From positions 936 to 64,935 of the forward strand of contig CAYZMD010000001.1 of NCBI GenBank assembly GCA_964479425.1: a stretch of DNA of 64,000 nucleotides, read 5' to 3'. This document shows, in pieces, positions 1-20,922 of this stretch. The first letter of the stretch is position 1, and each line of letters starts with the position of its first letter. The position numbers and the translations under genes are program-made. Under the pieces are notes generated by a model. That model was given only the letters and a program-made list of their open reading frames with translations, was not told the origin of the DNA and did no database searches. This DNA comes from an uncultured Methanosarcinales archaeon (GTDB lineage: Archaea; Nanobdellota; Nanobdellia; Woesearchaeales; CAYSVS01).

Positions 1-3000
1 CTCATTCTAATAAACTTTACCCTTTTAATATATTTTTCATATATATATGGGGCAGCTAAAATTAAAATGAATACTAATAATAACAAAATACCAAATGGTG
101 CAGACGTACAAACGTTTTCTTTTCGTAGGAATGTTGCACAATCTTTAGGACAATTTATTTCAGTTTCTCCATTTCCACAAAATCCATTTCCACATAGGCA
201 TCCTGTAGCATCATATACTTTATCGGGGTTTACTTTTTTACCAATTATAATATATTCTTTATTACATTTAACATCCATATCGTAATATTTAATATTCCCA
301 AGAATAGCTTTATTCTCAATATCTTTATTAATTTCTTCGGCGACAATTTTTTCAATAAGTCTACGCGAAAGTGGATTATCCAATATTTCTGTATGTGTTT
401 CTTCAATATCCCAGAAATTTTCACATCTATTATTTAGGATAACATCATTTATGGATTGTGCACTTTCAATTGATACAATTCCGTCGTTTATTTCTTTATC
501 TCCAAACATTTCTAGTTTTATTAGTTCTTTCCCAAATTGAAAAGTTTTGGTTCCTGCTATAGAATAATATTTAATGTTTGGAACTATTGGCGTATTTTTT
601 CCATTAATTAAATCTTGCATTCCTGGACTATTCACGTCGACTATTGCAGTTCCTGAATTTATATTTGTTAAAAATTGACTTAGAGAAATTAACGTTTCAG
701 CTCCAGGTGTTCCTTTATTTGGAACCCCAACCAGTATTACTTTTTTTATTTTATTTAAATATGTATATGTTCCTGGTTTTTCTAAATTCACAGCATAACT
801 GTAATACAGGGCGTCTCTTGTTACTAGTCCCCCCATTGAATGTGCTACAATATATGCATAATCAAACTCGTTTGCATTGGCTTCTAAGTGATTAGCTAAT
901 TCAACAGCATTTTCTGATACTGCTTTTTCTGTTGGGTATCCAAAGGTCCAAACTTGCCATGGTTGGTTTGTTAGCCTTATATCTTTCAAAATATTTTCAA
1001 AAGTTTTAGGAGAAGACCCAAATCCGTGAACGAGTAACAAAGCATCTCTTACATAATAGTCAGGTTCATAATTTTTCTTTAATGTACTAAACTTACAGTT
1101 TGCACATATTTTTCCTATTTGAGCAATAACAATTTCTTTATTTCTGTCTAAATATTTATAAGGATTTTTTAATTTTGCAACTAGTTTATCTTGCGTTATT
1201 GTCTCTAGTGGCAACCAGGAGTCCTTTGATGTTTTTATATAAAGCTTATTGCTATTACTTTCAATAATATCTTCTTTTATCTCATCAACAGATATTATGA
1301 TTTCTTCACTCAAATTTACATCAGAAGAAATGGCAATTGGATTTCCAAGTATTTTTAATAGGCTATTTTTTGGTTCTCTCACAATATTTTTTGGTTCTCC
1401 ATAAGTAATTGAGGCTTGTTGGTTAAATTGAAGTTCAAACTCATCTTTTCTAATCCTGCTACCACTAAAGACTGTTTCTATAAATTTTTCTTGTCCCAAT
1501 CTTTTTAGATATTTACTTTGTGTACTAAACTCTTTAAACTCTTCTCCACAACTTAAAGAATTAATTTCTTCTAAATTAACTGTCTTACACTCTCCATTAC
1601 AAGCATACGCTTGAATATCTTCATAATTATTAGGCAAAGATAAGCTTAATTTTCCGCTTTGTTCGCATTTTAGTTCAAATTTGTCAATCAAAATATCATA
1701 ACCCAAAGGAATATTAAAATTTAAATCCGAAGAAAATATTTTAAAATTATTTTGATATGATTTTTTGTCTTTTATGCAAGGCATGTTTTCAACATTAACT
1801 GATTTTATGTCAATAGAGCTTTCTAGTCTCTGTTTAAAAATATCAAAAACACTTGTTTCTTTTTCATTAATTATTTGTATTTCCAGCATGACTATGTCTG
1901 AGACAATTCTTCTGAGCTTTACCCTTATGTCAAATATATCATCATCATCTAAATTAATATTAATTATTTCATTAATAGATAAACCAAAATTAAAAGGCGT
2001 ACTTGCTACGGTCATATTAATTTTATATCCAATTTTATTAATTGTTAATTGATGCTCTTTTCCTTTTACACTGAAATTTCTACTTTCAAACTCAGGAATA
2101 TTTAAAAATATTATTTTAATTCCTGTATTTGAAGGAACTTCAGTTCTTGCTTCTTTTTTACATTTATTACAAGGCCCCCCACAGTCAGTTTTTTTCTCTC
2201 CTTGATTTTTTAATCCATCATTACATGTAGCAAGGCATGGCTGGCACGATCCCCCACAATCAGCACCAGTCTCGCCTTGATTTTTAATATTGTCTGTACA
2301 AGTCCCAATACCTGTACACATTCCATTAACACAAATATCTCCATTATTAGGACATCCGCAACTAGAACAATCATTAATTAGATTTAAATTAAAACCACAA
2401 TATTTTGGTTTTTCTATACTGCACTTTTCAACTTTAGTTCCATCTTTACATTCTAAAAAACATGCAGGACAACTTCCTCCACAATCTACATCGAGTTCAT
2501 CCCCATTTTTAATTTTATCTTTGCAGCTAGCGCAAGGTAGACAATTTCCTCCACAATCAATTCCAAGTTCATTTCCATTCTTTACATTGTCTGTACAGCT
2601 AGACATAACACATAAATTTGCAACACAATAATTGCTCAGGCAATCGATATCTAAAGAACAAGTTCTTCCAGCTCCACAGGCTTGACATGGACCTCCACAG
2701 TCTGTGTCCGTTTCTTCCTGATTTAAAATGGTGTCACTACAGCTTGCTTGTCTACATGTATTATCTTTGCAAAATAGACTTAAGCAGTCATAATTTATGT
2801 TACATTTTTCTCCAACTTTACAAGCATAACAACTTCCTCCACAATCTGTGGATGTTTCATCTCCGTTAAAAACTAAATCATTGCAACTTGCTTCTAAGCA
2901 TTTTCCATTGCTACAAAAATTAGAATTACAATCTGAATTTATATTACAGTTTTTATTTAAACTACAGGAAATACAACTTCCTCCACAATCCACATCAGTT

Positions 3001-5795
3001 TCACCCTGATTTAATGAATCATCTCTACAAGATGCAATTTTGCAAACATTATTTACACAATTCTTTGAATTACAATCAGTATCTATATTACAAATTTTAT
3101 CTAATGCACACTTATTACACAATCCTCCACAATCCACATCGCTTTCTTGATTATTCTTAAAATTATCTGCGCAACTTGCTGCAGAACAAGTATTACTTAT
3201 GCAATTATCATTTAAACAATCATTGTTTATATTGCAACTTTTGCCTTCATCACATTTACCACATATTCCTCCACAATCCACATCTGTTTCATCTTGATTC
3301 TGTAAAATATCTATACAGCTCGGAGTGATGCATTTGCCAAATAGACAAAAGTTATTTGAACAGTCTATGTTTGAATTGCATTTATCATTGTCACTACATT
3401 TATTACAACTTCCACCACAATCTACATCACTTTCATCCTGATTTATTATATTGTCAGTACAACTTTCTTGAGTACAAATATTATTTACGCAATTGTTTGT
3501 TATACAATCATCATTTATACTACAACCTTTTCCTGTCTGACACTTGGAACATATTACTCCTCCACAATCTATAAATGTCTCATCTTGATTTTTATTATTA
3601 TCTGTACAAGACGCTGTGTTACATATGTTATTCAAGCAATAATTACTTGCGCAATCTGTACTTATAGAACAACTTTTTCCAAAACCACACCCAATACATA
3701 ATCCTCCACAATCCATATCGCTTTCGTCTTGATTCAATAAATAATCAGAACAACTTTCTTCAAGGCAGATGTTATTAATACATAGGTTGGTCAGGCAATC
3801 ATCGTTTATGCTACAGCTTTTTCCAACATTACATTCGTTACAATTTCCTCCACAATCTACATCACTTTCTCCATAGTCTTTGATGTCATTATTACATCCT
3901 GATTCTACACACTTACCATTCATACACAATCCTGAAGTACAATCCATACTCCATGTACAATCCTTTCCTATATTGCATCCATCACATATTCCTCCACAAT
4001 CTACATCTGTTTCATCTTGATTTCTTATCCCATCACTACATGTTGGGATGTATGTACAACTTTTACTCTCACTATTGTCTCCTGTACAATCATTATTATC
4101 GGGACACAAACAACTACAGCTTCTTATTTGTGTGCCGCCAGGCAAGCAAGTTTCCCAATCACTACAATCCCAACTAGCAGAGCATATTTCTATTTCTGGT
4201 GGTTCATCATTTCCTCCTCCCCCCCCTCCTCCTGTAGATTGAGGTTCATTATCAATTGTAAATCCATGCAAGGTATTTATTTCATTTTCTCCTAAATCTC
4301 TACATACATAAAATTGAAAGTAAGTGTTCCCTTGTAAAACCGTTCTATTTACTTTGTGTAAAGTTCCATTAGACCATGTAAAATTAGCTCCATTTGTAAA
4401 ATTAAAAACAGAAAACCCATATTCACAATTTGCAAATTCGTTAGTAGATATTGTTAATTCTACTCTTGTTGTTGTATATGATAGAGTAACTCCACTATTT
4501 GGATTTTGTATACTTATTATTGGAGTAGTTGTATCAATAGTAAAATTTACATTTGTTGTATTAAGATTGCCTACGGTGTCGTTAGCATAAGCTAAAAGAG
4601 TATTGCTTCCTTCACTAAATATTCTATAAACAGGATTTGTGTATGTTTCATTTTCAGTTCCATTAAAGAACCAAATATTATTTCCATTGCTTGTTATATT
4701 TACTAGAACAGTTACATTATTGTATGTAATATTTTCTGGGGAATTTATTGATATCGTCGGAGCAGTTGTGTCAAATACAATGCTATAATTATCTTCTTCA
4801 CTCCAATTGTTGTTTTCTGCAGAATCATAACCTAAACAATTCCATTCAAATGTATCTTCATAGGGTAATGTATAAGCAAAAGTTGTAGAGTTTGATACTC
4901 CTAATAAATTTGTTGTGTTAGTATGTATATTATCTTCAGTTGAATTCCATAAATAAAGTGTTAAATTAGCAATACTTGTATCATCTGTAATATTACAGTT
5001 AAATGTTTGTAATGCTGTTGAAGTAACTGTTGCATTTATAGGATTTATTAAATGGATAGTTGGATCAACTATATCTTGTTCATTCTCACTAGTTACCAAT
5101 ATCAATTCAGGAGAATAAGTAATATTTTCTTTCGAATAAAAAGAACAACTACAATTAGAATTCTGATCTCTCCATAATCCAAAAGAGATTATTTTATCTC
5201 CATTTAAAACTTCTATTGTGTAATTGGTTACGTTATATGACATTGTTACCAAAACCAATGCTAAATCTTTATTATCAATTTTTGTACCTAAATTTGGTTT
5301 ATTTGCCCATAACAAAGTACTTTCTAACCATGAATCATCATTAACTTTGTATAATGCAACTTTATTATATTGTGAATCACAGTAGACGTTTCTAACGTTC
5401 ACAACCAAATTTAAAGTTGCATTGATTATATTACTTGAGTTATAGTCTGAAATATTAAATTTTAAAAATGATTGTCTATGAAAGCTAGTGCTATCCCATT
5501 CATCATTATCAACAGTTAATGGTTCTCCGTCATGGTTTGTGTCTCCGTAGAAAATACTTCCACAATATGCATCATCTGTTGGAATAATTCTTACATTGGT
5601 TTCGCTTATTTTTGTCTCTGGAATAAAACCCATAATATTAGACATATCTTCTTTTTCATTAATTAAATTTGTAAAATTAACACTATTATTATCGACAGTT
5701 GCCATTCCCGTTATCCCTGATCCTGTAAATATCATATTCAAAAGTAGCAAAAGAATTCCCCATTCCATGATTTCTTCTACTATTTTTTTATTCAT
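1..5795 (-). CDS. Giant secreted/membrane-anchored multidomain surface protein (partial, C-terminus beyond window start): signal peptide, NxS/T-rich region, poly-Gly hinge, ~13 Cys-rich 48-aa repeats, lipase-like alpha/beta-hydrolase domain, C-terminal TM anchor
   Basis: ATG at 5795-5793 overlaps the stop of the upstream gene (ATGA). By-eye translation runs without a stop to position 1, with frame consistent at both ends. The ORF track lists no minus ORF here, which is expected only if the ORF is open at the window edge. N-term MNKKIVEEIMEWGILLLLLNMIFTGSG. Repeats carry DVDCGG. LLVHGFG lies at ~1018-1035 and GxSxG AHSMGG at ~830-847. C-terminal TM APFGILLLLVFILILAAPYIY at ~50-110. Confidence 0.8.
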   Translation of the reverse strand, partial: MNKKIVEEIMEWGILLLLLNMIFTGSGITGMATVDNNSVNFTNLINEKEDMSNIMGFIPETKISETNVRIIPTDDAYCGSIFYGDTNHDGEPLTVDNDEWDSTSFHRQSFLKFNISDYNSSNIINATLNLVVNVRNVYCDSQYNKVALYKVNDDSWLESTLLWANKPNLGTKIDNKDLALVLVTMSYNVTNYTIEVLNGDKIISFGLWRDQNSNCSCSFYSKENITYSPELILVTSENEQDIVDPTIHLINPINATVTSTALQTFNCNITDDTSIANLTLYLWNSTEDNIHTNTTNLLGVSNSTTFAYTLPYEDTFEWNCLGYDSAENNNWSEEDNYSIVFDTTAPTISINSPENITYNNVTVLVNITSNGNNIWFFNGTENETYTNPVYRIFSEGSNTLLAYANDTVGNLNTTNVNFTIDTTTPIISIQNPNSGVTLSYTTTRVELTISTNEFANCEYGFSVFNFTNGANFTWSNGTLHKVNRTVLQGNTYFQFYVCRDLGENEINTLHGFTIDNEPQSTGGGGGGGNDEPPEIEICSASWDCSDWETCLPGGTQIRSCSCLCPDNNDCTGDNSESKSCTYIPTCSDGIRNQDETDVDCGGICDGCNIGKDCTWSMDCTSGLCMNGKCVESGCNNDIKDYGESDVDCGGNCNECNVGKSCSINDDCLTNLCINNICLEESCSDYLLNQDESDMDCGGLCIGCGFGKSCSISTDCASNYCLNNICNTASCTDNNKNQDETFIDCGGVICSKCQTGKGCSINDDCITNNCVNNICTQESCTDNIINQDESDVDCGGSCNKCSDNDKCNSNIDCSNNFCLFGKCITPSCIDILQNQDETDVDCGGICGKCDEGKSCNINNDCLNDNCISNTCSAASCADNFKNNQESDVDCGGLCNKCALDKICNIDTDCNSKNCVNNVCKIASCRDDSLNQGETDVDCGGSCISCSLNKNCNINSDCNSNFCSNGKCLEASCNDLVFNGDETSTDCGGSCYACKVGEKCNINYDCLSLFCKDNTCRQASCSDTILNQEETDTDCGGPCQACGAGRTCSLDIDCLSNYCVANLCVMSSCTDNVKNGNELGIDCGGNCLPCASCKDKIKNGDELDVDCGGSCPACFLECKDGTKVEKCSIEKPKYCGFNLNLINDCSSCGCPNNGDICVNGMCTGIGTCTDNIKNQGETGADCGGSCQPCLATCNDGLKNQGEKKTDCGGPCNKCKKEARTEVPSNTGIKIIFLNIPEFESRNFSVKGKEHQLTINKIGYKINMTVASTPFNFGLSINEIININLDDDDIFDIRVKLRRIVSDIVMLEIQIINEKETSVFDIFKQRLESSIDIKSVNVENMPCIKDKKSYQNNFKIFSSDLNFNIPLGYDILIDKFELKCEQSGKLSLSLPNNYEDIQAYACNGECKTVNLEEINSLSCGEEFKEFSTQSKYLKRLGQEKFIETVFSGSRIRKDEFELQFNQQASITYGEPKNIVREPKNSLLKILGNPIAISSDVNLSEEIIISVDEIKEDIIESNSNKLYIKTSKDSWLPLETITQDKLVAKLKNPYKYLDRNKEIVIAQIGKICANCKFSTLKKNYEPDYYVRDALLLVHGFGSSPKTFENILKDIRLTNQPWQVWTFGYPTEKAVSENAVELANHLEANANEFDYAYIVAHSMGGLVTRDALYYSYAVNLEKPGTYTYLNKIKKVILVGVPNKGTPGAETLISLSQFLTNINSGTAIVDVNSPGMQDLINGKNTPIVPNIKYYSIAGTKTFQFGKELIKLEMFGDKEINDGIVSIESAQSINDVILNNRCENFWDIEETHTEILDNPLSRRLIEKIVAEEINKDIENKAILGNIKYYDMDVKCNKEYIIIGKKVNPDKVYDATGCLCGNGFCGNGETEINCPKDCATFLRKENVCTSAPFGILLLLVFILILAAPYIYEKYIKRVKFIRM
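2150..4060 (-). repeat. Tandem ~144-nt (48-codon) intragenic coding repeats, about 13 copies, each encoding an 8-Cys module: SCxDNxKNQDETDVDCGGxCxKCxxGKxCxxNxDCxSNxCxNNxC
   Basis: Plus-strand motif tcctccacaatc (revcomp gattgtggagga = DCGG) recurs at ~2471, 2538, 2690, 2838, 2980, 3124, 3265, 3412, 3558, 3702, 3846 and 3994, i.e. a 141-152 nt period from 2538 onward. Confidence 0.8.
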
Positions 5796-6259
5796 TTTTT
5801 CTTTGCCCTATTATATGCTGTCCAGATTGTTTTTGGGTTTCTGTCTATCAATCTAGCAATATCTGTAAATCCTAAGTCATATTCTTTTTTTAGAAATACT
5901 GACATTGATTCTAAAGCAGATAATTTTTTCTTAAAAAACATTTTAATAGGAATATCAAAATCAGAATCATAAACGGTTATTTTATCTTTATTTTTTGCAT
6001 TATTATATGTTGTCCATATTGTTCTGTCGTCTCTATTCAAAATCTTAGCAATTTGACTATATTTATATTTACAATTTTCTTTAAGATATTTAACAACACT
6101 TTCTAGTATACTTAATTCTTTTGTAAAAGCAGATAAAGGAATTTTTTCTCTTCTTTCTTTTAATGAATTTGATTTGTTACTTAATTTTTTAAGAAGCATT
6201 TCTATTAATACCTCTTTATCTACGTTCTCTAGAACTTTTGCAATATTCTCTTTTTTCAT
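5792..6259 (-). CDS. Tandem helix-turn-helix domain protein (two ~45-aa HTH repeats, sigma-70 region 4/LuxR-like), putative DNA-binding regulator
   Basis: Internal duplication LSxLESxVKYLKE...IAKILNRDDRTIWTTYNNAK and LSALESMSVFLKK...IARLIDRNPKTIWTAYNRAKKK. Its stop overlaps the start of the giant gene (tcat at 5792-5795). Confidence 0.55.
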   Translation of the reverse strand: MKKENIAKVLENVDKEVLIEMLLKKLSNKSNSLKERREKIPLSAFTKELSILESVVKYLKENCKYKYSQIAKILNRDDRTIWTTYNNAKNKDKITVYDSDFDIPIKMFFKKKLSALESMSVFLKKEYDLGFTDIARLIDRNPKTIWTAYNRAKKK

Positions 6260-7716: not shown

Positions 7717-9065
7717 TGTCCGCCCACCCTTGCTTTTTTTATTAGTATGCTTGGACAAGGACCATATACTGGAACGTATTGTCCTCCTTTTCCACAATGT
7801 CCTGCAAAACTAGGTTCATATTCGTCAGATATCATTGTAATATCATTAAGTATTTTTAAGGTATTTCCTGATAGGCTAACTCCTTTTAATCTTCCTTTAA
7901 GTTCTCCTCTTTCTATGGCAAAGCCTTCTTGTGCTGAGAATGTAAAATTACCAGTTGTTGGATCAACCTGTCCTCCAACGCTTCCTTTTAGAAAAACTCC
8001 TTTCTTTACATTGGAAATAATATCTTCAAATTTATCTTTACCCTTTTTTATATATGTATTTGACATTCTTACTTGAGGCAAAAATGATGCAGATTGAGCT
8101 CTTGCATTTCCTGTTGGCATTGCGTTTAATTTTGCTGCAGTTTCTCTTGAATGCATAAGACCTTTAAGAATTCCTTTTTCAATTAATGTCGTTTTTTGTG
8201 CAGGTATTCCTTCATCATCGTAAAAATAACTACCCCATAAATTAGGCATTGTTGCATCATCATATATATTAATGAATTCTGGAGCTATTTTTTTTCCGCT
8301 TAGTCCTTTTAGACAGCTACTATTTTGTAAAATTTGATCTGCTTCTGCTGCATGCCCTAGTGCTTCATGTATAAAAACATCAGTCAAGGAGCCGTCACAA
8401 ACAACAGGTATATTTCCTGCTTTTGAATGCTTGGCGTTTAACATTTCTAGCGCCGTTTGTGTTGAGCTTTTTATTAACTCTGGCATTCTTTTTGTAACTT
8501 CATATCCTCTTAATTCCCCAACTCTTCCAAAGAAGTTCTCTATTTTATCATTCTTTTTTGTTGTTACTGAAGCTCCAATCATAGTATACTTTAGATTTTG
8601 TTGTATTTCGCTACCTTCAGAATTTACAAATAATAGTTTTTTATCAATTTCATTATAATTAACTAGACAGTTTTTTACTTTATCGTCTTTAATTTTGCTA
8701 TTTTTTAGGACTAGTTTCTTTTTTTCTTCTAGTGTAACATTTTGATTATCTATTTTCCATTTACTTTTTACATTCTTTTTTATTCTTTTTGTTTCAGCGA
8801 ATTCTCTTTTTTCTGTAGTATTTTTATCCATTAATTTAGCAATTTTTAACGCTTTTTTAACTCCTTTCTCAATATTATTAGAATATACAAAACCTTGTCC
8901 ATTGCCAGATATTATTCTAATGGAACTTCCTTGTCTTTGATTAGAATCAAAATTCTTGATATGGTTGTTCCAAGCAGAAACAGATAAATTATCTATATCT
9001 TGTCTTCTAAAGTCCCAATATTTAACATTCTCTTTTTTTAATAGTTTAGAAATTTTATTATACAT
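7713..9065 (-). CDS. tldD: TldD metalloprotease
   Basis: HEALGHAAEAD (HExxxH) zinc motif. TldD-like length (450 aa). Immediately upstream of the tldE/pmbA partner. Confidence 0.75.
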   Translation of the reverse strand: MYNKISKLLKKENVKYWDFRRQDIDNLSVSAWNNHIKNFDSNQRQGSSIRIISGNGQGFVYSNNIEKGVKKALKIAKLMDKNTTEKREFAETKRIKKNVKSKWKIDNQNVTLEEKKKLVLKNSKIKDDKVKNCLVNYNEIDKKLLFVNSEGSEIQQNLKYTMIGASVTTKKNDKIENFFGRVGELRGYEVTKRMPELIKSSTQTALEMLNAKHSKAGNIPVVCDGSLTDVFIHEALGHAAEADQILQNSSCLKGLSGKKIAPEFINIYDDATMPNLWGSYFYDDEGIPAQKTTLIEKGILKGLMHSRETAAKLNAMPTGNARAQSASFLPQVRMSNTYIKKGKDKFEDIISNVKKGVFLKGSVGGQVDPTTGNFTFSAQEGFAIERGELKGRLKGVSLSGNTLKILNDITMISDEYEPSFAGHCGKGGQYVPVYGPCPSILIKKARVGGQ

Positions 9066-11796: not shown

Positions 11797-12600
11797 ATGG
11801 ACTCAAAGAAAATAAAGGCATTATTAGCAAGTACTCAGAAGGTTAATAATCTTAATAAGAATTTGATAAAAGAAATAGAAACAAATAAGAATATAATTTA
11901 TGATTTAAAAAAAACTGAAGTCCAATATAAAAAATGTCAATTAGAATTTGATAAGAAGCAAGTCCATTCTAAATTATTACAAAAACAGGATGATAAGGAT
12001 AAAAATACAAATTCTAATTTAAAAAAGATTGAAAATCAATATAAAAAAGTTCAGCTTGAATTCAAAAAAAAATTAGATCAGATAAAAGAATTACAAAAAC
12101 AAACCGATAAAGACAAAAAAACAATTTCTAGTTTAGAAAAAATAAATTTTCAAAACAAAAAGGCTCAAGTAGATATTAAGAAAAAAACAGATTACATAAA
12201 ATCACTACAAAAAGAAATTGAAAAAAACATCAAAGTAAAAGCAGAATTAATTGAGATAAAAAAGAAATTAACATCGCCCTCAAAAACAATAGATAGACTT
12301 ATCTTAAATAATAATGAAAAAGACAAATTGATTGAAAAACTTCAAGATTTTGTTTTTAGGGCTGACGAAAAGAATAAAGAGTCTGAAAAATTAGTTGATT
12401 CTTTAAATAATGAAACTAATATGCTTAATAACAAAATTAAAGATATGCTTTCTTTACAACATAAATTAAGAAATCAAATAAATGCTATGAAAAATGAACG
12501 TGCTTCTTTTAAAAAACACATTATGCATTTAGAACAGCAGAAAGAAGAATTAGTAAAGGAAAAATTAAGATTTCAGAAAAAAAGAATGTATATTAAATAA
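11797..12600 (+). CDS. Lys-rich coiled-coil protein with ~41-aa tandem repeats
   Basis: Repeats of the pattern KKxEVQYKKxQLEFxKKxxxxKxLQKQxDKDKxTxSxLxKI. Oligo-T tract after the stop. Confidence 0.5.
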   Translation: MDSKKIKALLASTQKVNNLNKNLIKEIETNKNIIYDLKKTEVQYKKCQLEFDKKQVHSKLLQKQDDKDKNTNSNLKKIENQYKKVQLEFKKKLDQIKELQKQTDKDKKTISSLEKINFQNKKAQVDIKKKTDYIKSLQKEIEKNIKVKAELIEIKKKLTSPSKTIDRLILNNNEKDKLIEKLQDFVFRADEKNKESEKLVDSLNNETNMLNNKIKDMLSLQHKLRNQINAMKNERASFKKHIMHLEQQKEELVKEKLRFQKKRMYIK

Positions 12601-12619
12601 AAAAGAAAAAAATGTTTTT

Positions 12620-13573
12620 TTATTCTGTATGTCTTACGGCAATTTTTGTTTGAACTTTGTCTTCGTATGCATACTCTAAGTCTATTTTGATTTGTTTTTC
12701 GCTATCTATCCTTGTAGGAAGGGTTTGGGTACATACTATATTTCTTTTCTCATTACCACTATTTCCATATAGCTCAATGCTTCCTTCTGTTCCTTGTAGT
12801 CCTGTACATATCATCTGACCGCCAACAATATTGCTATCTACTTTTATGGTTACTCTATTTTTATTTTGTAATGTTGGTTCACAAGCAACTCCTCTTTTAT
12901 ACAATGCTCCTTCTCCTACATGTTCAACGTCAAAAGATAAACTTATTTTATCTTTTCCAATAGCGGATTGTTTTACATTTGTAACTTTTACTGGAGCGCC
13001 ACTATTTTGTGTTTCTTTATCATCATTTACTTCACATAATGCAGTTTCTCCTGTTTTTCTAGTACTGCCTAATAAATCTTCTAAAATGCAAATTTGAGCA
13101 ACAGCTTTTGTGGCATAAGGATAACATACTTCCGCTAGAATTGTTGGGTATATTGTCCCTGTAATAGTGTTTGCTTGCAGGTTAACAAATTCTACTCCAT
13201 CTATACTTCCTACAAGAGGATTCCCTTGAGGGTCTAAGCTAGCTCCCCTTAGTTCATTAACATTTTTTTTAACTAAGTCTGTAGCTATAACATTATAGTC
13301 TTGAGGAAAAATTCCTTTGATTCTTACAATTGCTTCATTGCCAGGAATATCTGTTTCTCCAACATTTTCGAGTCTTACATTTATATTAAAAGGATAATTT
13401 ACGTCGTAAACTTCTTCAGGAGGTGCTCCTGTGTTAAATTTAATATCTAATCCTTTGTCTCCTCCAATAAATGCAACACCTGAGCCGCCTGTTGAGGTTT
13501 TATCATCTGTTTGTTGACCATCACAACCAACAATTAATAACATTAATACAATTAATGCAATAATCTTTTTCAT
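12620..13573 (-). CDS. Lipoprotein, paralog 1 of 3 (CARDB-like beta-sandwich surface protein)
   Basis: Signal plus lipobox MKKIIALIVLMLLIVGCDG. Shared motifs with the next two genes (CYPYAT, GAPVKV, IKIDLEYAY). CARDB-like NINVRLENVGETDIPGNEAIVRI. Confidence 0.65.
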   Translation of the reverse strand: MKKIIALIVLMLLIVGCDGQQTDDKTSTGGSGVAFIGGDKGLDIKFNTGAPPEEVYDVNYPFNINVRLENVGETDIPGNEAIVRIKGIFPQDYNVIATDLVKKNVNELRGASLDPQGNPLVGSIDGVEFVNLQANTITGTIYPTILAEVCYPYATKAVAQICILEDLLGSTRKTGETALCEVNDDKETQNSGAPVKVTNVKQSAIGKDKISLSFDVEHVGEGALYKRGVACEPTLQNKNRVTIKVDSNIVGGQMICTGLQGTEGSIELYGNSGNEKRNIVCTQTLPTRIDSEKQIKIDLEYAYEDKVQTKIAVRHTE

Positions 13574-13588
13574 CTTTTCATCACCTTT

Positions 13589-14521
13589 CTAAGTAGGAAC
13601 TTTAATTATTTCAACTTTTTTCGAAATACTTTCCATATATCCATAATCAAGTTTGATTTCTAATGGTGTTTGGTAAGCAAATTTGTTTTCGCTAGGTATT
13701 ACAAATGTACAAAAAATAGTTGCTTTCCCATTAATCAATCTTACTTCATTGCTTGGACTACATTTTTCAGGTCTTTTTCCTGATAGTGTAACATAATATT
13801 TTGCTTTATTTAAATCATCATATTCTAAATCAAAAGGACATTCATGTATTCTTATTACTTTTCCTTTTCCTGCATTATTTACTTCAATTTTAAAATGTGC
13901 TTTATCTCCTATTGTATTTACTCTTACAGCGCTTACAGATACTGGACCTCCTTGCCCACTTCCCATTGGAACATCTCTTGGAACACATGCTTTTTCTTCA
14001 ATACTTATATCGTAAAATTTAGGATCAATACATACAATAGCATTAGATAAAGTTTGATATTCATAACACATTGTTGCAATAAGTGTTGGTTCATAGACAT
14101 CGGTTCCTGTTGGTAAATTGATTGAAGATGAACTAAATTCAATTGTTTCCATTTCTCCCTCTGTATTGTATTTTGTTCTACCTTCTAAAGGACCAAAACT
14201 TTTTTCGGTATCAATACCTCTTATTAAATTTTTATCATGTCCTCCTAAATAAATTTTCCCATTTGTTTTGTAGGCTCCTTTATTATTTATTTCAATAAGC
14301 ATATTAATGTTTGTTGTATCATATAGTCTAGATGGAGGCAAATCTTTCATAAAATCCATCGTTATTCCTTGTGTTCCTATATACACTTTGTCTGTTAGAA
14401 TTCCTCCTCCTGCTGTTTCGGTGCTTGTTTTTCTTAAATTAAATCTATCGCAACCTGTTAATAATAGTAAAGAAATTAATAACAATATAATCCAGACTCT
14501 TTTTTTTTTCATTTTATTCAT
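13589..14521 (-). CDS. Lipoprotein, paralog 2 of 3
   Basis: MNKMKKKRVWIILLLISLLLLTGCD lipobox. Motifs CYEYQT, GGPVSV, IKLDYGY. IEVNNAGKGKVIRI. Confidence 0.65.
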   Translation of the reverse strand: MNKMKKKRVWIILLLISLLLLTGCDRFNLRKTSTETAGGGILTDKVYIGTQGITMDFMKDLPPSRLYDTTNINMLIEINNKGAYKTNGKIYLGGHDKNLIRGIDTEKSFGPLEGRTKYNTEGEMETIEFSSSSINLPTGTDVYEPTLIATMCYEYQTLSNAIVCIDPKFYDISIEEKACVPRDVPMGSGQGGPVSVSAVRVNTIGDKAHFKIEVNNAGKGKVIRIHECPFDLEYDDLNKAKYYVTLSGKRPEKCSPSNEVRLINGKATIFCTFVIPSENKFAYQTPLEIKLDYGYMESISKKVEIIKVPT

Positions 14522-14554
14522 TATAAACCTATATTATAGTATATATAAATTTTT

Positions 14555-15478
14555 CTATTCTTTTACTTTAATACTTCCTTTATGTTCACTTCTATAATTA
14601 TAATTGAGCTTAACTGAAAAAATACTTTTGTAAACTCCTTCACTTCTTTCTATTAATGTTGAACATCTGAATGTACCTCTTTTTTCTTTTAATTTTACTT
14701 CCTTAGGTGTACATTCTAAATCCCTTATTCCTACAACAGCATCACTTATTATTATTTTTTCGTCAGTAACTTTTCCATCTCCGATATTACTTATTTCTAT
14801 GTCGTAATTAGCATATATACCACTACCTTTTGATGTTATATATTCTTTTATCTTTTTTACAGCCACGGGTGCTCCTTGATTATTTAGTGAGATTGTAGTT
14901 GGGTCGCAAGCGTCTTTCACAATTTTCATATGCTCATAGATATTTGGGTTTATGCAGACTTCTGTACTTGCTATTGTAGCATAAGGATAGTCTAATTCAA
15001 TAATATAAGGTTGTGTATATTCTTTGGCTCCATATTGTAGTTTTAAATTAACTATTCTAAATTCAATAATCTCTTGTTCTCCTTCTGGTAGGTATCTACT
15101 TTTTCCTGCAAGCGTAACCAATCTTTCGTCTTTATATGGAGAGAAGTAAAGAGAATTTAGTGCAGATAATATTACTTTTGCATCTGCAACATCTTCTGTC
15201 CCAGAATTTTTTAATTCCATTCCTATTGTGAATTCTTCTCCTTCAAAAATTTCTTTTGGAGGCATTCCTGTAATTTCTTTTATAGTTAGTCCATCATCTC
15301 CTTTTCTATAATCTTCTGTAGGCGGGACTTTTCCTTGTGCTGATAATTTACCAAAATTACCGAGTTTTAAATATTGACATCCACCTAGTAATATGACGAC
15401 AATTAATAAAATAATTATTTTTTTCATGCTTAAAAATCTACGATTTCTTTGATGCTGAAAATTTACAATTTTCATCAT
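14555..15478 (-). CDS. Lipoprotein, paralog 3 of 3 (alternative start 15427)
   Basis: MKKIIILLIVVILLGGCQ lipobox follows a 17-aa N-extension. Motifs DYPYAT, GAPVAV, KLNYNY. ELKNSGTEDVADAKVIL. Confidence 0.6.
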   Translation of the reverse strand: MMKIVNFQHQRNRRFLSMKKIIILLIVVILLGGCQYLKLGNFGKLSAQGKVPPTEDYRKGDDGLTIKEITGMPPKEIFEGEEFTIGMELKNSGTEDVADAKVILSALNSLYFSPYKDERLVTLAGKSRYLPEGEQEIIEFRIVNLKLQYGAKEYTQPYIIELDYPYATIASTEVCINPNIYEHMKIVKDACDPTTISLNNQGAPVAVKKIKEYITSKGSGIYANYDIEISNIGDGKVTDEKIIISDAVVGIRDLECTPKEVKLKEKRGTFRCSTLIERSEGVYKSIFSVKLNYNYRSEHKGSIKVKE

Positions 15479-17373
15479 GATACAAAATCACCTACTCGTA
15501 CATTATATTTTTTTTCAATGGTATATGAATATGTAACTCTTCCTTCAATATCTTTAGGCTCTTTTCTTGCTTTTGTTAGTTCAATTCCTAAATCATCAGT
15601 TTCATCAATTTTAAGTTGACAGGTCGCTATTCTTGTTTTTTTATTTTTTGTTATTTTACTAAAATCACTTTTGTATTCGTTAATAACCCAAGTTCTTTCA
15701 CCTGCATTCCATTCACTACATGTTTCTTCACTTTTTTTAGTAATTCCTGGAATCATATCAATTTCAATTCTTTTAATCTCTTTTATTTTTCCAACTTGGT
15801 TATTTGTTATTGAGTATGAAAAAGACAAATCAATATCTCCCGCAGGATTTCTTATGTTTGATATTATAGGATATGTTGGGGGCTGTCCGATAAAAAAGAC
15901 TAATGACGCAAATTCTTCTGCAGGAGTAAATGGAACATATATACCATTCTGAAAACATTCAGGACAACTTCCAAGGACTAAGGTCTGGATTAATTTATCT
16001 TTATTTTCTTTGTTTAATTTTTCATCTCCAACAAAAACTTTTGTTAATATGGATGTAGTTGTAACATCTTTTACGTAAAATACAAATTCTGCTGTATATT
16101 TTCCTTTCCCGAGTCGCTCAATTGGTCTACAAACAATTTCTGCTTCTAGTGGATAATCAGTGTCTTCAATCTTTGGAATAATAAAACTTGCATAAGAATC
16201 TACACTTCCTTTTATTGTCTTTTTATCTTTTTCACTTGGTTTAAAAAAACAACTCATTTCAACTGGAATTTCTTCTATAGCACTTCCATATTCTAATGCA
16301 ATTTGATATCCGCTAATAGGATCAATGTTTGCAATTGTTTCAGCAAGTGGGTATACTGATGATTTTTTTATTCTAAAAACCAACCCTTTTGCTCTTTTTG
16401 ATGTTGCTACAGTCATTTTTTTCTCTTCTTCTTCAGGAGGATGCATACAATCATAATAGTTTTCTCCATACCACAAACTTCTCCATGTACAATACATTGG
16501 ATTGGCAATAACTTTCTTAGTATCTTCAAGCTGGTCTTCTCGCGCTAACGCAACTTCTTCTGATTGACCAAATGCTGAAATTTGTTCCCCCATACCGCTT
16601 ATTGCAATTACAAATATTACAAAGTAAACAAGCGCTAGGCTTGTAATCGCTTTAGAAAATCCTTTCTCTGTGGTTGTTCTTGTATAATATGCAAATAATA
16701 CCCACCACGGCCAGAAAACAGAAAGAAAAAATGTATTTCCTGCAAGCCCTGCAATTGTTACAATTTCTGTATGTAAAAAAGTTAGAATTGCTGCAAATAT
16801 TGCTGTTGGTCCCAATAAATCAAGTGTATAAAAAATCATTAAAATATTAAGGAACATATAGCTAGTTCTTAATCCTGTACTGCTAACGTCAACAATATAT
16901 GGTAGTACCCAGATGAGTATTCCAAACAATAGAATTTTTTTATATTTTTTATCTTCAGATTCAGAAAGTTTTTGTTTTTGTGATTTTGCTTTACCTACTC
17001 CTTTTTTTAATCCCCATAAGCCCGCTGCTCCAAGGCCACCCAATGCCCATTTTATTCCCTTGCCTATGCCTTTAACTCCTTTTTTTAATGTAGGCGTATA
17101 AACATCAGTATAGTTGCCTACTGTTTCGGCACCTGATTTTACTGCATTTACTCCTGTTGATACTTTATCTTTAGTCCATTTGTGTGTATCTTTTGCCCAT
17201 TGAGGAGTTGCATTTTGAGCAGCTTCTTTTGCTACTTGCCCTACTCCTTTAGTCCACAAAGTTTCTTCTTGTAGATTTACTTTTGCAAGCTTTTCTTTCC
17301 TATCTGCATCTTTTTTTTTAGCTTCTTTATCCCATTGTTCTTGAAGGAAAGTACCTTCTTCTTCTTTAGCCAT
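15475..17373 (-). CDS. Polytopic membrane protein: Lys-rich cytoplasmic N-domain, ~4 TM helices, ~380-aa extracytoplasmic C-domain
   Basis: Hydrophobic segments ILLFGILIWVLPYIV, MFLNILMIFYTLDLLGPTAIFAAILTFL, TFFLSVFWPWWVLFAYY, ITSLALVYFVIFVIAISGM. ATGA-style overlap with the downstream lipoprotein gene. Confidence 0.6.
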   Translation of the reverse strand: MAKEEEGTFLQEQWDKEAKKKDADRKEKLAKVNLQEETLWTKGVGQVAKEAAQNATPQWAKDTHKWTKDKVSTGVNAVKSGAETVGNYTDVYTPTLKKGVKGIGKGIKWALGGLGAAGLWGLKKGVGKAKSQKQKLSESEDKKYKKILLFGILIWVLPYIVDVSSTGLRTSYMFLNILMIFYTLDLLGPTAIFAAILTFLHTEIVTIAGLAGNTFFLSVFWPWWVLFAYYTRTTTEKGFSKAITSLALVYFVIFVIAISGMGEQISAFGQSEEVALAREDQLEDTKKVIANPMYCTWRSLWYGENYYDCMHPPEEEEKKMTVATSKRAKGLVFRIKKSSVYPLAETIANIDPISGYQIALEYGSAIEEIPVEMSCFFKPSEKDKKTIKGSVDSYASFIIPKIEDTDYPLEAEIVCRPIERLGKGKYTAEFVFYVKDVTTTSILTKVFVGDEKLNKENKDKLIQTLVLGSCPECFQNGIYVPFTPAEEFASLVFFIGQPPTYPIISNIRNPAGDIDLSFSYSITNNQVGKIKEIKRIEIDMIPGITKKSEETCSEWNAGERTWVINEYKSDFSKITKNKKTRIATCQLKIDETDDLGIELTKARKEPKDIEGRVTYSYTIEKKYNVRVGDFVS

Positions 17374-17374
17374 C

Positions 17375-18577
17375 TTAGTCTTTTTCGTAATAGTCTATGT
17401 TGAATTCTCCAACATAAAAGTCATTTCTTGGCAAAATTTTAACAATGTTTGTTCCTTGATCAACAAAAATTTTAATCTTATCACTATACCCTACATCTGT
17501 AGTATCCAGAACAGTTTCATGACCATTGATTATTATTCTTGCTTCTTTTTCTTCTATGTCGTCTGCAAATCTCATTGTTAAATTGACATAAGCATTGTTT
17601 CTTTGTAGTTCACTATACTGCGTACTATTCAGATAGAAATCATAGATAAAGTCTCTTGATTCTTTTAAGTCACTTTTTACTTGAACTTGGTCTAGTAAGT
17701 AGCTTCCTTTATCTGCACTAATTTCAAGAATATTTTCTCCTTGAGCAATACAATAAGGTAGAATTTCATGTATACTTAATTGATTACAATCAGGAACTCC
17801 TGCAAAAACTTTACAGTCATTCAGATTAACTCTAAGAACTCCAACATCTCCAGGAGTACAGTCTGGAAAGTATCTTAATTTAATTCTATTCAAATTATCT
17901 TTTTCAAATTCATCTACAATAAATCTTAATTTGCTACTTCGTGCACTAACATCGGTTAAGTCTCCTGTTATTTGTACATTTTCTAGGCTGAACTCATGTG
18001 TTTTCCAAAATGCAGCTCCTACGCTAGATGCGCTAAATTCTATTAAATTTTGGTTTTTTAAGAAGTCCTTGGATATTTTTATAGGCGATATCTGTCCTTC
18101 TGATAATTCTTTATTGAAAATTTCATTACCATTAATTTTGATGTTTAACATACCAGCACTAGATATTATTTCAAAATTTAATAATAAATTTGCACTATTC
18201 TCTATGTCTTTCAATGTAAAACTAAAATTATCTTTCTCGTCGCTAAAAACTGCTCTTTTTACATAAATACTGTTTTTTTCTTTTAGAACAGTTCCTTCTG
18301 TTTTAGTATACAAATAAACCGAGGCGAGATCATGCTCTACTTCTTTTTGTTGTAGATATGTTAGTTTGCCAGGTATTTCAGAAAGTAAATTGGTTTGTAT
18401 ATAATCTTCGCTATCAGTAGACACGCTATTACTTGAACTGGAGCTATCTCCTTCAAGGATTCTTTGTCTATCTTCAGGAGGAATAAACATGATGTAAACA
18501 ACAATAAGAATTGTTATAACAACTACGAGTACCGCAGCACTTCCTCCTCCTTCTTGACCTCTTTTCTTTCTGAACAT
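17375..18577 (-). CDS. N-terminally anchored extracytoplasmic protein (signal-anchor)
   Basis: MFRKKRGQEGGGSAAVLVVVITILIVVYIMFI, then a ~360-aa Ser/Asn-rich soluble domain. The ORF-track start is GTG; the first ATG is at 18577. One nt from the next gene. Confidence 0.55.
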   Translation of the reverse strand: MFRKKRGQEGGGSAAVLVVVITILIVVYIMFIPPEDRQRILEGDSSSSSNSVSTDSEDYIQTNLLSEIPGKLTYLQQKEVEHDLASVYLYTKTEGTVLKEKNSIYVKRAVFSDEKDNFSFTLKDIENSANLLLNFEIISSAGMLNIKINGNEIFNKELSEGQISPIKISKDFLKNQNLIEFSASSVGAAFWKTHEFSLENVQITGDLTDVSARSSKLRFIVDEFEKDNLNRIKLRYFPDCTPGDVGVLRVNLNDCKVFAGVPDCNQLSIHEILPYCIAQGENILEISADKGSYLLDQVQVKSDLKESRDFIYDFYLNSTQYSELQRNNAYVNLTMRFADDIEEKEARIIINGHETVLDTTDVGYSDKIKIFVDQGTNIVKILPRNDFYVGEFNIDYYEKD

Positions 18578-18755
18578 AAATATCACCTTTTTATATTATT
18601 TTATATTATAGAGAACTTTGATTCATTTCTAAAAAATGTAGTTTTCATTTATTTATCATACATCAAAGTTCGCTATATAGGGTTATTAAACCCTCTATAA
18701 TCTTTATTACTTAAAAATAAATAACTTTATATATAAATATATTTCTATTTTGAAC

Positions 18756-19871: not shown

Positions 19872-20921
19872 TTAAATTAACCTCATAACATCTTCTACAA
19901 TCATCAACTCTTCATTAGTCGGAATAACCATTACTTTTATTTTACTTTCATCAGAAGATATTATTGTGGAATTTTTTTTATTTTTACTCTTATCTAAATT
20001 TAAGCCTAGGAATCCAAAATTCTCGCAAATGTCTTTTCTTATATAATGTTCATTTTCTCCCATACCTGCTGTAAAAACTAAAGTGTCCAACCCCTTTAGT
20101 ATCGCAATAAGCGCACCAATTTTTTTAATTGCTTTATATACAAACATTTCTTTTGCAAGTTTTGCATTTTTAGAATTTGATTTATAAATATCTCTCATGT
20201 CATTACTAATTCCGCTAATACCTAGAAGTCCAGATTCCTTATTAAACATGTTCAATATTTCAGATATATCCATTTTATACTTTTTTGCTAGATACTCTAC
20301 AACAGCAACATCTATATCTCCACATCTTGTCCCCATAATAAGTCCTTCTAATGGTGTAAATCCCATTGTTGTGTCTATTGCTTTTCCATCTTTTATTGCT
20401 GTTATGCTACATCCATTTCCTAGATGACAAGTTATTACTTTTCCCTTTAACTTTCTGCTTACAAATCTATGACTTGTTCCATGAAAACCATATCTTTTGA
20501 TATCTTTGAAATATTTTTTAGGTATTGCATAATATTTTGCAACATCTGGCATGTTTGTATAAAAAGAAGTATCAAAAACACCTATTTGTTTTACTTTAAA
20601 CATTTTTTCACAAATTCTTATAACTTCTAATTCAGGAATATTATGTAATGGCGCTAATTCACAGCAATCTTCTATTATTTTAATTTTATTTTTCGTAAGA
20701 ATGCAGCTTTCTGTTAAATTCTTTCCATGAACTATTCTATGGCCAATAGCTTCAATTATTATTTTTTCTTTATCAATCTTTTTTATTATCTTATTAATAC
20801 ATTTTTCTCTAGATTTTTTTGTAAGTATATTTTGAAAATAATCTCCTAATATTTTTTCTTTCTTTTTATATATTGAATATTTTATTGAAGAACTACCTAC
20901 ATTTAAAATAAGAAAATTCAT
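19872..20921 (-). CDS. ackA: Acetate (or butyrate) kinase, ASKHA family
   Basis: N-term FLILNVGSSSIKYSIY, GFHGTSH, CHLGNGCSITAI. 349 aa. Confidence 0.75.
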   Translation of the reverse strand: MNFLILNVGSSSIKYSIYKKKEKILGDYFQNILTKKSREKCINKIIKKIDKEKIIIEAIGHRIVHGKNLTESCILTKNKIKIIEDCCELAPLHNIPELEVIRICEKMFKVKQIGVFDTSFYTNMPDVAKYYAIPKKYFKDIKRYGFHGTSHRFVSRKLKGKVITCHLGNGCSITAIKDGKAIDTTMGFTPLEGLIMGTRCGDIDVAVVEYLAKKYKMDISEILNMFNKESGLLGISGISNDMRDIYKSNSKNAKLAKEMFVYKAIKKIGALIAILKGLDTLVFTAGMGENEHYIRKDICENFGFLGLNLDKSKNKKNSTIISSDESKIKVMVIPTNEELMIVEDVMRLI

Positions 20922-20922
20922 T

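Follow-up and report, generated by a model that had tools for sequence, protein, structure and literature searches.

A predicted giant surface protein of an archaeon, with an array of Cys-rich repeats and a probably membrane-proximal alpha/beta-hydrolase

Little is known of how DPANN archaea attach to partner cells and draw on them, and only a few of the molecules that take part have been named. Among described proteins, the SPEARE proteins of Nanohaloarchaeota are giant, mostly extracytoplasmic and proposed to act in host interaction; their conserved part is an intracellular type III restriction-like region, and they also carry a serine protease and a toxin-like domain (PMC6642349). For carbohydrate recognition, there is CBM96, a genuine family of polysaccharide binders; the ligand of its founding member is alginate (PMC9971899). 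Among esterases, the lipase BlEst2 of Bacillus licheniformis has a chain of 487 residues and carries inhibitory beta-sandwich domains at its C-terminus (PMC10816834; 6wpx title). Here, we analysed a stretch of 64,000 nucleotides of archaeal DNA (the window), which starts with a giant gene. We hold it fairly probable that this gene encodes an adhesin-like modular surface protein of a low-GC archaeon with a small genome, with a carboxyl-ester hydrolase close to the membrane.

The giant gene and its neighbours

The giant open reading frame (ORF) occupies positions 1..5795 of the minus strand, where all features below are located. It comprises 1,931 stop-free codons, from 5795 down to 3, and the window edge cuts its 3' end; in-frame stops are found 5 codons upstream of the ATG at 5795. 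An earlier note, made from the sequence letters, had described one unbroken minus-strand frame running past the edge, and this is what we find. The closest homologue, a protein of 5,021 aa (P0125), is collinear with the giant protein over aa 252-1928, with 43-53% identity. Because of this collinearity, of the intact frame and of the low nucleotide identity between the repeat units, we reject that the gene is an assembly chimera or a pseudogene. The ORF is real and encodes a very large protein, predicted to be on the cell surface. Exact patterns of 56 nt had no match in genome contigs or metagenome contigs. Exact look-up of the HTH and TldD proteins encoded nearby led to three contigs (L002, of 8.4 kb, L079 and L080); only L002 reaches the giant gene, ending 73 codons into it, and the 5' junction of the ORF is found again in this independent assembly.

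The neighbours of the giant gene include genes for RFC, an eRF1-family protein (aRF1 or Pelota), Topo VI B, Hef and primase, and the earlier picture of a giant, membrane-anchored and largely extracellular archaeal protein is supported. A search of the whole window revealed no second member of the cassette family described below and no further Cys unit. Immediately upstream, a gene at 5792..6259 encodes a protein of 155 aa with two sigma-70-region-4-like HTH units (Pfam Sigma70_r4_2, E 1e-8), to which the sigma-70-type families of NCBIfam match weakly. Its stop overlaps the start of the giant ORF (ATGA). Homologues of this gene adjoin the giant gene with the same 4-nt overlap at three related loci (L007, L009, L012) and take the corresponding position at a fourth (L008). 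Of the 10 genome loci, 6 lack the HTH gene, and where it lies with respect to the giant gene varies. We regard this small tandem-HTH gene, linked to the cassette family, as a putative regulator.

Domain order from the N-terminus to the membrane helix

Residues 1-32 (5700..5795; MNKKIVEEIMEWGILLLLLNMIFTGSGITGMA) consist of a basic N-terminus and a hydrophobic segment, putatively a Sec signal peptide or an N-terminal anchor. Kyte-Doolittle values exceed 1.6 at aa 5-32, and a basic n-region precedes a hydrophobic h-region at about aa 12-32, where the earlier note had read a signal sequence. A CBM96-like carbohydrate-binding module follows (aa 68-234; 5094..5594), matching PF24517 with E 1.8e-21 and 77.1 bits for a cutoff of 26, over profile positions 3-163 of 164. 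It would form the distal tip of the protein and is a putative glycan binder. Next come about three sequon-rich Ig-like domains (aa 243-515; 4251..5069), a segment matched by Big_13 above its cutoff (E 6e-6 in a scan of this segment by itself) and weakly by Big_7. N-glycosylation sequons are biased towards this part of the protein: 29 of the 32 are in aa 33-535, whereas shuffling gives an expectation of 14.8 +/- 3.2 and reached 29 in 1 of 5,000 shuffles. Hence, the earlier description of some 500 aa dense in sequons stands for the two-fold enrichment, but the region is in fact made of the folded CBM96 module and about three Ig-like domains. The Gly7 hinge was correctly seen; the run at aa 522-528 (4212..4232) is also reported by Tandem Repeats Finder as (TCC)7 at 4212-4233.

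The array beyond this linker contains 112 Cys in total. It opens with an irregular Cys-rich segment without a Pfam match (aa 538-585, CSASWDCSDWETC...; 4041..4184) and continues with ten tandem units of 48/49 aa and 8 Cys each (aa 586-1066; 2598..4040), whose boundaries follow the Cys pattern. Their consensus is CxDxxxNqdEtDvDCGGxCxxCxxgkxCninxDCxsnxCxnnxCxxaS, and they share 49% identity in amino acids and 59% in nucleotides. Four half units, each with 4 Cys in 24-25 aa (aa 1067-1115 and 1166-1214), surround another irregular Cys-rich segment (aa 1116-1165) at 2154..2597, a region where Tandem Repeats Finder detects a 72-nt period (2468-2602). The proposed Cys-rich repeat array is therefore present, but instead of some 13 tandem 8-Cys modules it has ten full units, four half units and two irregular segments. 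Sequons are absent from the ten-unit array, against 12 expected. An AF2 model of three units has a pLDDT of 86.7, and the predicted shape of the array is that of a rod.

The Cys units match neither Pfam nor NCBIfam models, and the 48-aa unit is therefore an uncurated repeat type. We found no profile or structural match of the units with EGF, LDL-A, TSP1 or knottin, and searching four of them against PDB sequences gave only a spurious match to BID (E 1.6). The 8-Cys unit also occurs 22 times in one other protein (P0001), whose composition suggests a high-GC and presumably bacterial source, and 11 times in another (P0009).

The array is followed by a poorly conserved region to which we could assign no fold and which has no Pfam match (aa 1215-1334; 1794..2153). 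Most family alignments begin at about aa 1325-1360 and, among the family proteins found, only P0125 spans this region, which it covers from aa 1235. The cassette proper begins with a domain of unknown function (aa 1335-1554; 1134..1793), some of whose Cys are conserved. It invariably precedes the hydrolase, is conserved in the homologues P0044 and P0045 and in most family proteins listed, and has no Pfam or NCBIfam match.

The alpha/beta-hydrolase domain (aa 1555-1838; 282..1133) contains an oxyanion HG (H1590-G1591), the nucleophile S1653 in AHSMGG (nt 837-839), D1771 in NDGIV (nt 483-485) and H1801 in THTE (nt 393-395). Both motifs previously read here, LLVHGFG and AHSMGG, are present, and the fold is supported by Pfam, by the model, by the family alignment and by structural neighbours. 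The Pfam match to DUF7379 (PF24096) is marginal in score (34.1 bits for a cutoff of 33, E 3.4e-8, profile positions 1-137 of 191) and is also found in P0044 and P0045. The model has a central beta-sheet flanked by helices in the canonical alpha/beta-hydrolase order; AHS1653MGG lies between the strand at 93-98 and the helix at 100-118 of the model, and D1771 and H1801 follow in canonical order. Neither HG nor the Ser, Asp and His of the triad vary among 25 diverged family members, and the triad is kept in about 97-99% of the aligned rows (Ser in 148 of 152, Asp in 152 of 153, His in 151 of 152). Since the triad is conserved, a degenerate, non-catalytic hydrolase can be rejected. The domain is apparently active and of lipase/esterase type, with Ser1653-Asp1771-His1801 as predicted catalytic residues. 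Searched as a single sequence, the C-terminal 717 aa had no match in the PDB; only the family profile reached BlEst2 (6wpx), the closest solved relative (E 1e-10, 19% identity). The hydrolase-fold match that the earlier note had proposed as a check of this region is found, both with DUF7379, above its cutoff, and with BlEst2, by family profile.

A small Cys knot (aa 1844-1886, CLCGNGFCGNGETEINCPKDC; 138..266), whose Cys are invariant or nearly so across the family, precedes a transmembrane (TM) helix (aa 1899-1919; 39..101). The helix reaches Kyte-Doolittle values of 2.7 and aligns with the TM helix of P0045 and P0125. The knot, of the form CxCGNGxC...C, and the hydrophobic helix had both been recognised before. 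Twelve residues after the helix the window edge cuts what appears to be the start of a K/R-rich cytoplasmic region (aa 1920-1931 onward, EKYIKRVKFIRM; 1..38). That this is a type I protein ending in a short basic tail, as had been suggested, is unproven, because P0125 aligns up to the last window residues and then goes on for about 480 aa with further TM helices. At related archaeal loci, 11 of the 14 ORFs run 135-811 aa past the first TM helix, often with one to four more TM helices, and three have tails of at most 12 aa. The P0125 tail is K/R/E-rich and of low complexity, with no domain recognisable by eye. We reject an archaeosortase substrate of the PGF-CTERM kind: the last 92 aa have no NCBIfam match to a sorting signal (PGF-CTERM and similar) at E<=5.

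An N-terminal signal and a C-terminal anchor would place the hydrolase, about 55 residues from the TM helix, at the membrane-proximal base of the protein and CBM96 at its distal tip. A stalk carrying a lipase head, the architecture originally proposed, is not supported by this arrangement, where the distal head would be CBM96. An extracellular orientation fits the enrichment of sequons at the tip, their absence from the Cys array, the 112 Cys and the K/R-rich segment after the TM helix.

The cassette family and its possible function

The search for the cassette, i.e. the last ~570 aa, detected it in 462 representatives, of which 198 match at E<1e-30, and we take the family to include at least 198 50%-identity protein clusters, with lengths of 600-7,646 aa. 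Among the matches listed, it is mostly near the C-terminal end of the protein. The Pfam domains outside the cassette differ widely among 24 members and include beta-helix, LamG, propellers, protease and others. The cassette is the constant part of a large uncharacterised family with swapped outer domains. Labelled relatives come from Woesearchaeota, Nanoarchaeota or Nanoarchaeia MAGs, two of the MAGs have two paralogues each, and 3 of the 10 archaeal loci, which were searched with a three-sequence alignment (A2), are labelled Methanosarcinales. The labels of the homologues suggest a DPANN affiliation for the archaeon of the window as well. The architecture had been thought unusual for an archaeon. 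This view is not supported, given the recurrence of the cassette in so many clusters, including Woesearchaeota and Nanoarchaeia MAGs, and the giant protein is not a one-off because it belongs to a large family with DPANN-named members. In the literature, we found no published description of the cassette family, nothing on DUF7379 and nothing relevant on DPANN and lipase.

How might such a protein work? An N-terminal signal would direct its export, and the helix near its C-terminus would keep it in the membrane of the producing cell. From outside to inside, it would present a glycosylated CBM96 module with three Ig-like domains, a flexible Gly7 joint, the Cys stalk and the ~570-aa cassette. The stalk, with its 14 small Cys-knotted units, would be long and stabilised by disulfides. 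In the mechanism that we find most likely, the variable tip would attach the cell to a glycan-bearing partner or substrate, and the invariant hydrolase would cut a carboxyl-ester bond of an ester lipid, an acylated glycan or an acylated protein in the narrow zone directly outside the producer's membrane. Several points count against this main reading. The membrane lipids of archaea are ethers, which leaves a classical lipase without an obvious target on an archaeal host or on the producing cell. The hydrolase is far from the binding tip, DUF7379 is barely above its cutoff, and the nearest solved structure is only 19% identical.

The co-occurrence of an active-looking lipase-type hydrolase with adhesion-type domains, in a family whose labelled members come from DPANN lineages, known ectosymbionts (PMC6642349, general concept), would also fit a weapon as pictured in the earlier note, where an adhesin stalk presents a lipase head to attack or penetrate a host membrane. 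This seems improbable to us, as only ~55 residues separate the hydrolase from the TM helix of the producing cell while CBM96 takes the opposite end, and the matches to effectors do not stand out in score from dozens of matches to other, unrelated alpha/beta-hydrolases. The idea of host-membrane attack is further weakened because carboxyl-esterases do not cleave the ether-linked lipids of archaeal membranes. Ester bonds of another kind would be cut if the protein were a carbohydrate esterase or some other non-lipid hydrolase, serving, together with CBM96 and on extracellular polymers, in polysaccharide or cell-wall deacetylation or in polyester breakdown; its role would then be nutritional rather than one of host interaction. 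The polysaccharide-binding nature of CBM96, with its alginate-binding founding member (PMC9971899), and the presence of feruloyl esterases, PHB depolymerases and PET/MHET hydrolases among the structural neighbours of the hydrolase speak for it. Yet, CBM96 is no constant partner of the cassette, the outer domains of which differ among members, tethering by a ~1,300-aa stalk is atypical of polymer-degrading enzymes, and the closest relative in sequence and structure is a lipase. We thus see this as very unlikely.

A further point against the main reading is that the missing 3' end may add TM helices and a large cytoplasmic domain, which would allow a role in signalling or transport. The extracellular cassette would then sense or process a ligand, one or several TM helices would pass the information or the product to a large tail, and the adjacent HTH protein would be the output regulator. 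Such long tails are what 11 of the 14 related loci encode, and that of P0125 starts directly after the last window residue; the overlap of the HTH gene with the giant ORF, in the window and at related loci, points the same way. But the tail itself lies beyond the window, the one of P0125 is of low complexity, three relatives nearly lack it, and the HTH gene, missing from most genome loci, has no fixed position, so that we consider this reading unlikely. Returning to the adhesin-like protein with a membrane-near esterase, its parts could also belong to an undescribed, family-wide contact-dependent system, an idea we find rather doubtful: the tip would pick the partner and the esterase would process captured ester-linked material, for uptake or for signalling across the membrane. 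The parts at hand are the unknown domain, the hydrolase, the Cys knot, one or more TM helices, the cytoplasmic tail, the swappable outer domains and a translationally coupled HTH gene. Bacterial or eukaryotic lipids and acylated envelope glycans are candidates for the captured material. Uptake in this sense assumes that, as in other DPANN archaea, the cell may be unable to make its own lipids.

An apparently active esterase that stays constant near the membrane while the outer domains are swapped is what one would expect if the protein served in partner recognition and had one fixed enzymatic function. The giant gene is a clear example of this large family, whose proteins reach 7.6 kaa and have more than one copy in some MAGs. 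It offers a concrete enzyme with a defined active-site mutant, S1653A, and a defined CBM for glycan binding, and the 48-aa Cys repeat and the ~220-aa conserved domain, both uncurated, could become database families. If it is true that the enzyme acts on ester lipids, this would bear on the membrane source and on the partners of lipid-auxotrophic archaea.

Comparison with known systems

The hydrolase shares with BlEst2 and the PGAP1/DUF676/DUF7379/LCAT-like branch the motifs HG, x-S-x-GG, GTPxxG and NDG(I/A)V. Unlike in BlEst2, it is embedded in a protein of more than 1,931 aa, towards the C-terminus, after an unrelated conserved domain and before a Cys knot and a TM helix. The PGAP1-class likeness put forward earlier is not borne out, as PGAP1 (PF07819) has no match at E<=0.1 in the giant protein and only a faint one in P0045. 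The likeness to LipA survives in part. Bacillus subtilis LipA, of lipase family I.4, has the same A-H-S-M-G nucleophile elbow, the HG oxyanion motif and a common fold. But Lipase_2 (PF01674) has no Pfam match in the giant protein, the LipA/EstA chains match the family profile at a non-significant E of 0.91, and our domain has inserted helices and exceeds LipA by ~100 aa.

The small disulfide-rich repeats of eukaryotic and bacterial surface proteins, such as EGF, LDL-A and knottin-like modules, likewise come as tandem units of 24-48 aa with fixed Cys spacing and an acidic D/E/N cluster, although none of the corresponding Pfam or NCBIfam models matches the Cys array. The CBM96 match in the giant protein is full-length, as in the alginate-binding modules of alginate lyases. 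The founding members of CBM96 are in secreted bacterial polysaccharide lyases (PMC9971899), whereas here the module would be the N-terminal tip of an archaeal membrane protein. In overall plan, the giant protein resembles SPEARE: both are giant DPANN proteins, ours by the labels of its homologues, with variable adhesion domains, a TM region toward the C-terminus and a conserved membrane-near region, and for both a mostly extracytoplasmic location and a role in host interaction are proposed. Protease, LamG and restriction domains have no Pfam match in the 1,931 aa, the cytoplasmic part being beyond the window. Unlike in SPEARE, where the conserved part is intracellular, the conserved part of the giant protein would be an extracellular alpha/beta-hydrolase cassette.

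Reading frame, domain order and topology

The giant gene at the start of the window is, as the earlier note described it, a single uninterrupted minus-strand frame running past the window edge. It holds 1,931 codons without a stop from 5795 to 3, where the edge cuts the frame, and in-frame TAA and TAG codons five codons 5' of the ATG make 5795 its earliest possible start. At the ~30% G+C of the window, such an open frame cannot have arisen by chance. A collapsed or chimeric assembly is unlikely too, because a separate short-read assembly (L002) repeats the 5' junction, from the upstream 155-aa gene through the ATGA overlap to codon 73 of the giant gene, because the closest homologue (P0125, 5,021 aa, from another MAG) is collinear with residues 252-1928 at 43-53% identity, and because nucleotide identity between the Cys-repeat units is only 50-67%. 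Three short-read assemblies of the same organism, L002, L079 and L080 (in this order ENA ERZ27315925, ENA ERZ27315904 and Logan SRR7526679), have identical neighbouring genes. Only L002 reaches the giant gene, stopping after those 73 codons, and the other two stop upstream of it; the gene seems hard to assemble with short reads.

Translation and hydropathy place a basic n-region and a hydrophobic segment at residues 1-32, followed by a full-length CBM96 domain (68-234, Pfam E 1.8e-21), three Ig-like domains (~243-515, Big_13 at E 6e-6 when the segment is scanned alone, Big_7 weakly) and a Gly7 (522-528). The Cys-rich array comprises an irregular segment (538-585), ten units of 48/49 residues with eight Cys apiece (586-1066), two half units of 24-25 residues with four Cys apiece (1067-1115), a second irregular segment (1116-1165) and two further half units (1166-1214). 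After a poorly conserved region (1215-1334) come a conserved domain matching nothing in Pfam or NCBIfam (1335-1554), an alpha/beta-hydrolase (1555-1838), a Cys knot, CLCGNGFCGNGETEINCPKDC (1844-1886), a TM helix (~1899-1919) and, up to the window edge, EKYIKRVKFIRM (1920-1931).

N-glycosylation sequons are distributed in a non-random manner. The density reported for the N-terminal ~500 residues is real: residues 33-535 hold 29 sequons against 14.8 +/- 3.2 expected, a two-fold enrichment reached in 1 of 5,000 shuffles. The Cys array (538-1214; window 2154-4184, minus strand) has no N-x-S/T at all, against 12.0 +/- 3.0 expected, and none of 5,000 shuffles reached zero. The pattern fits an exported, glycosylated tip on a disulfide-packed stalk, and the sequon-free array suggests selection against glycosylating the latter.

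The putative N-terminal signal, the extracellular hallmarks up to residue ~1890 and the K/R-rich stretch past the helix imply that CBM96 is the distal tip and that the predicted hydrolase sits next to the membrane of the producing cell, ~55 residues away. This is the reverse of the stalk bearing a lipase head that was first pictured. Rather than ending in the short basic tail first proposed, the gene probably reaches several hundred codons beyond the window, since P0125 and most related loci continue past the first helix. P0125 aligns to residue 1928 (...YVYEKYIRRLRF in the window protein, ...YIYEKYIKRVKF in P0125) and then runs on for ~480 aa that include about four further hydrophobic helices and a tail rich in K, R and E. 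In 11 of 14 related archaeal loci the frame goes on for 135-811 aa past the first helix, and the five loci with the highest hydrolase identity are all among these 11; the other three end within 12 aa of that helix.

The Cys-rich array and the hydrolase

The 48-aa unit has the consensus CxDxxxNqdEtDvDCGGxCxxCxxgkxCninxDCxsnxCxnnxCxxaS, with a mean amino acid identity of 49% between units, and the half units are its first 24 residues standing alone. The earlier count of about 13 eight-Cys modules took in the 14 CGG-bearing units, just ten of which have eight Cys. Searches of Pfam and NCBIfam gave no match to the repeat, PDB sequences gave nothing, and Foldseek with the repeat model found only matches at E>1, to knottin toxins and colipase. 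By these searches it is an uncurated repeat type. Of the proteins retrieved, P0001 has 22 copies of the unit along with fibrinogen-C domains, and its amino acid composition suggests a high-G+C, presumably bacterial source; P0009 has 11 copies, and four more proteins have fewer. An AF2 model of three units (pLDDT 86.7, pTM 0.52) shows short bridges and a one-turn helix recurring in every unit, which fits a string of independent mini-domains. The most plausible role of the array is that of a rigid spacer. At 2-3 nm per unit, as in other small disulfide domains, the stalk would be ~25-45 nm long.

The hydrolase fold has gained support from a Pfam match to DUF7379, marginally above the cutoff (34.1 against 33 bits), and from an AF2 model built on a 56-sequence alignment (pLDDT 85, pTM 0.87); Abhydrolase_6 and DUF676 match the protein faintly. 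Its proposed likeness to Bacillus LipA/PGAP1-class lipases is borne out for the AHSMG elbow, a LipA-type pentapeptide, but Pfam gave no match to Lipase_2 or PGAP1, and the family profile had no significant match to LipA chains in the PDB. The domain looks catalytically competent, because the oxyanion HG and the predicted catalytic residues are kept almost universally. H1590-G1591, S1653, D1771 and H1801 are invariant in all 25 profile members, which are 25-39% identical to the window protein. In the wider family, 148 of ~152 aligned rows keep the Ser, 152 of 153 the Asp and 151 of 152 the His.

The cassette family and the neighbouring genes

With the last 717 aa as query, 1.84 billion representatives yielded 462 proteins, and for 198 of these E is below 1e-30. 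Among the matches listed, most span query positions ~120-710 (residues ~1335-1925) and have this cassette near their C-terminal end, in proteins of 600 to 7,646 aa; those with a named source come from Woesearchaeota, Nanoarchaeota or plain "archaeon". Two proteins show the opposite of the usual order, with thousands of residues after an N-terminal cassette: P0238 (5,821 aa, "SpoIIE family protein phosphatase", Woesearchaeota; cassette at 3-576) and P0264 (3,973 aa; 67-351). Their N-termini may be truncated. Ten archaeal loci emerged when one genome per GTDB species was scanned: the label is Woesearchaeota, Nanoarchaeia or Nanoarchaeota for seven and "uncultured Methanosarcinales" for three, and two MAGs have two loci apiece; bacterial matches were just 24-32% identical and limited to the hydrolase domain. 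The three loci of the latter kind, L003 (CAYSVS010000002.1), L010 and L012, have 27-36% G+C and close cassette homologues, and were deposited as "uncultured Methanosarcinales archaeon"; either these labels are doubtful or the family extends past DPANN.

Outside the cassette, Pfam domains vary widely among 24 mid-sized members (beta-helix/NosD, Laminin_G_3, PQQ, FG-GAP, Kelch and NHL propellers, subtilase, PKD, LTD, pentaxin). The family design joins one constant membrane-proximal cassette to an outer part that varies from member to member. Since it recurs across those 198 proteins and ten loci, the architecture, which the earlier note called unusual for an archaeon, is common in these archaea. 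CBM96, the Ig-like domains and the hydrolase are known parts; the Cys unit and the 1335-1554 domain are uncurated. Their combination belongs to a family already present in databases, where its members are at best called "esterase/lipase family protein" or else "hypothetical". It is no one-off, and falls among the giant, modular surface proteins known from DPANN archaea. A literature search found no published description of this cassette family or architecture.

The neighbours are archaeal housekeeping genes: TldD/PmbA (two copies), TyrRS, RFC small subunit, an eRF1-family protein, PheRS, Hef, primase large subunit and Topo VI B. The only one that seems linked to the giant gene is a 155-aa ORF (5792..6259, minus strand) with two sigma-70-region-4-like HTH units, ending in a stop codon that overlaps the ATG of the giant gene. 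In L007 (8646-8873), L009 (8601-9023) and L012 (9561-9980), homologues with one or two units share a 4-nt overlap with a giant cassette gene, and another has the corresponding position in L008 (~8691-8933); the HTH gene lies upstream in the window and downstream in these four. Such adjacency in several loci points to a dedicated regulator or partner, although the gene is absent from 6 of 10 genome loci. Elsewhere in the window, six consecutive ORFs beside RFC (11797-18586; 267, 317, 310, 307, 632 and 403 aa, five on the minus strand) form an uncharacterised cluster with no Pfam match at E<=1e-3 (E<=1e-5 for the 403-aa ORF). At 19872-21906 (minus strand) acetate kinase (E 5e-114) adjoins phosphotransacetylase (E 3e-132), a bacterial-type pair in an otherwise archaeal, housekeeping-dominated window. 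The single tRNA gene in the 64 kb is tRNA-Cys GCA (59004-59075, minus strand), besides which no Rfam family reaches its gathering score.

Possible functions and related systems

We consider it reasonably probable that this is an adhesin-like surface protein, whose variable, glycosylated tip would bind a glycan-bearing partner or substrate and whose invariant membrane-proximal Ser-Asp-His hydrolase would cleave a carboxyl-ester bond close to the cell's own membrane. The sequences and models establish the domain order, the fold, the conserved triad, the spread of the family and the sequon bias; export, glycosylation, disulfides, enzymatic activity, binding and the substrate are inferred from them. 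The hydrolase might instead attack a host membrane. That would be easier to understand if ester lipids were present in the partner or in scavenged material. Yet archaeal lipids are ethers, and this chemistry, together with the position of the domain near the producer's membrane, leaves such an attack improbable. Equally doubtful is a device for signalling or uptake in which the HTH protein and a probable cytoplasmic tail take part. An esterase for carbohydrates or polyesters, tethered to the cell, seems more unlikely still.

The protein is a useful starting point for work on an unstudied family with possible relevance to host interaction. The closest characterised enzyme to its hydrolase is BlEst2, the Bacillus licheniformis lipase (PDB 6wpx), which the 25-member family profile matches at E 1e-10 across the VHGL, S-x-GG, GTPxxG and NDG(I/A)V motifs. 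The closest published concept is SPEARE, the giant surface proteins of Nanohaloarchaeota (PMC6642349). These too combine an ectodomain that varies with a TM segment towards the C-terminus and a conserved core, but share none of the domains of the window protein.
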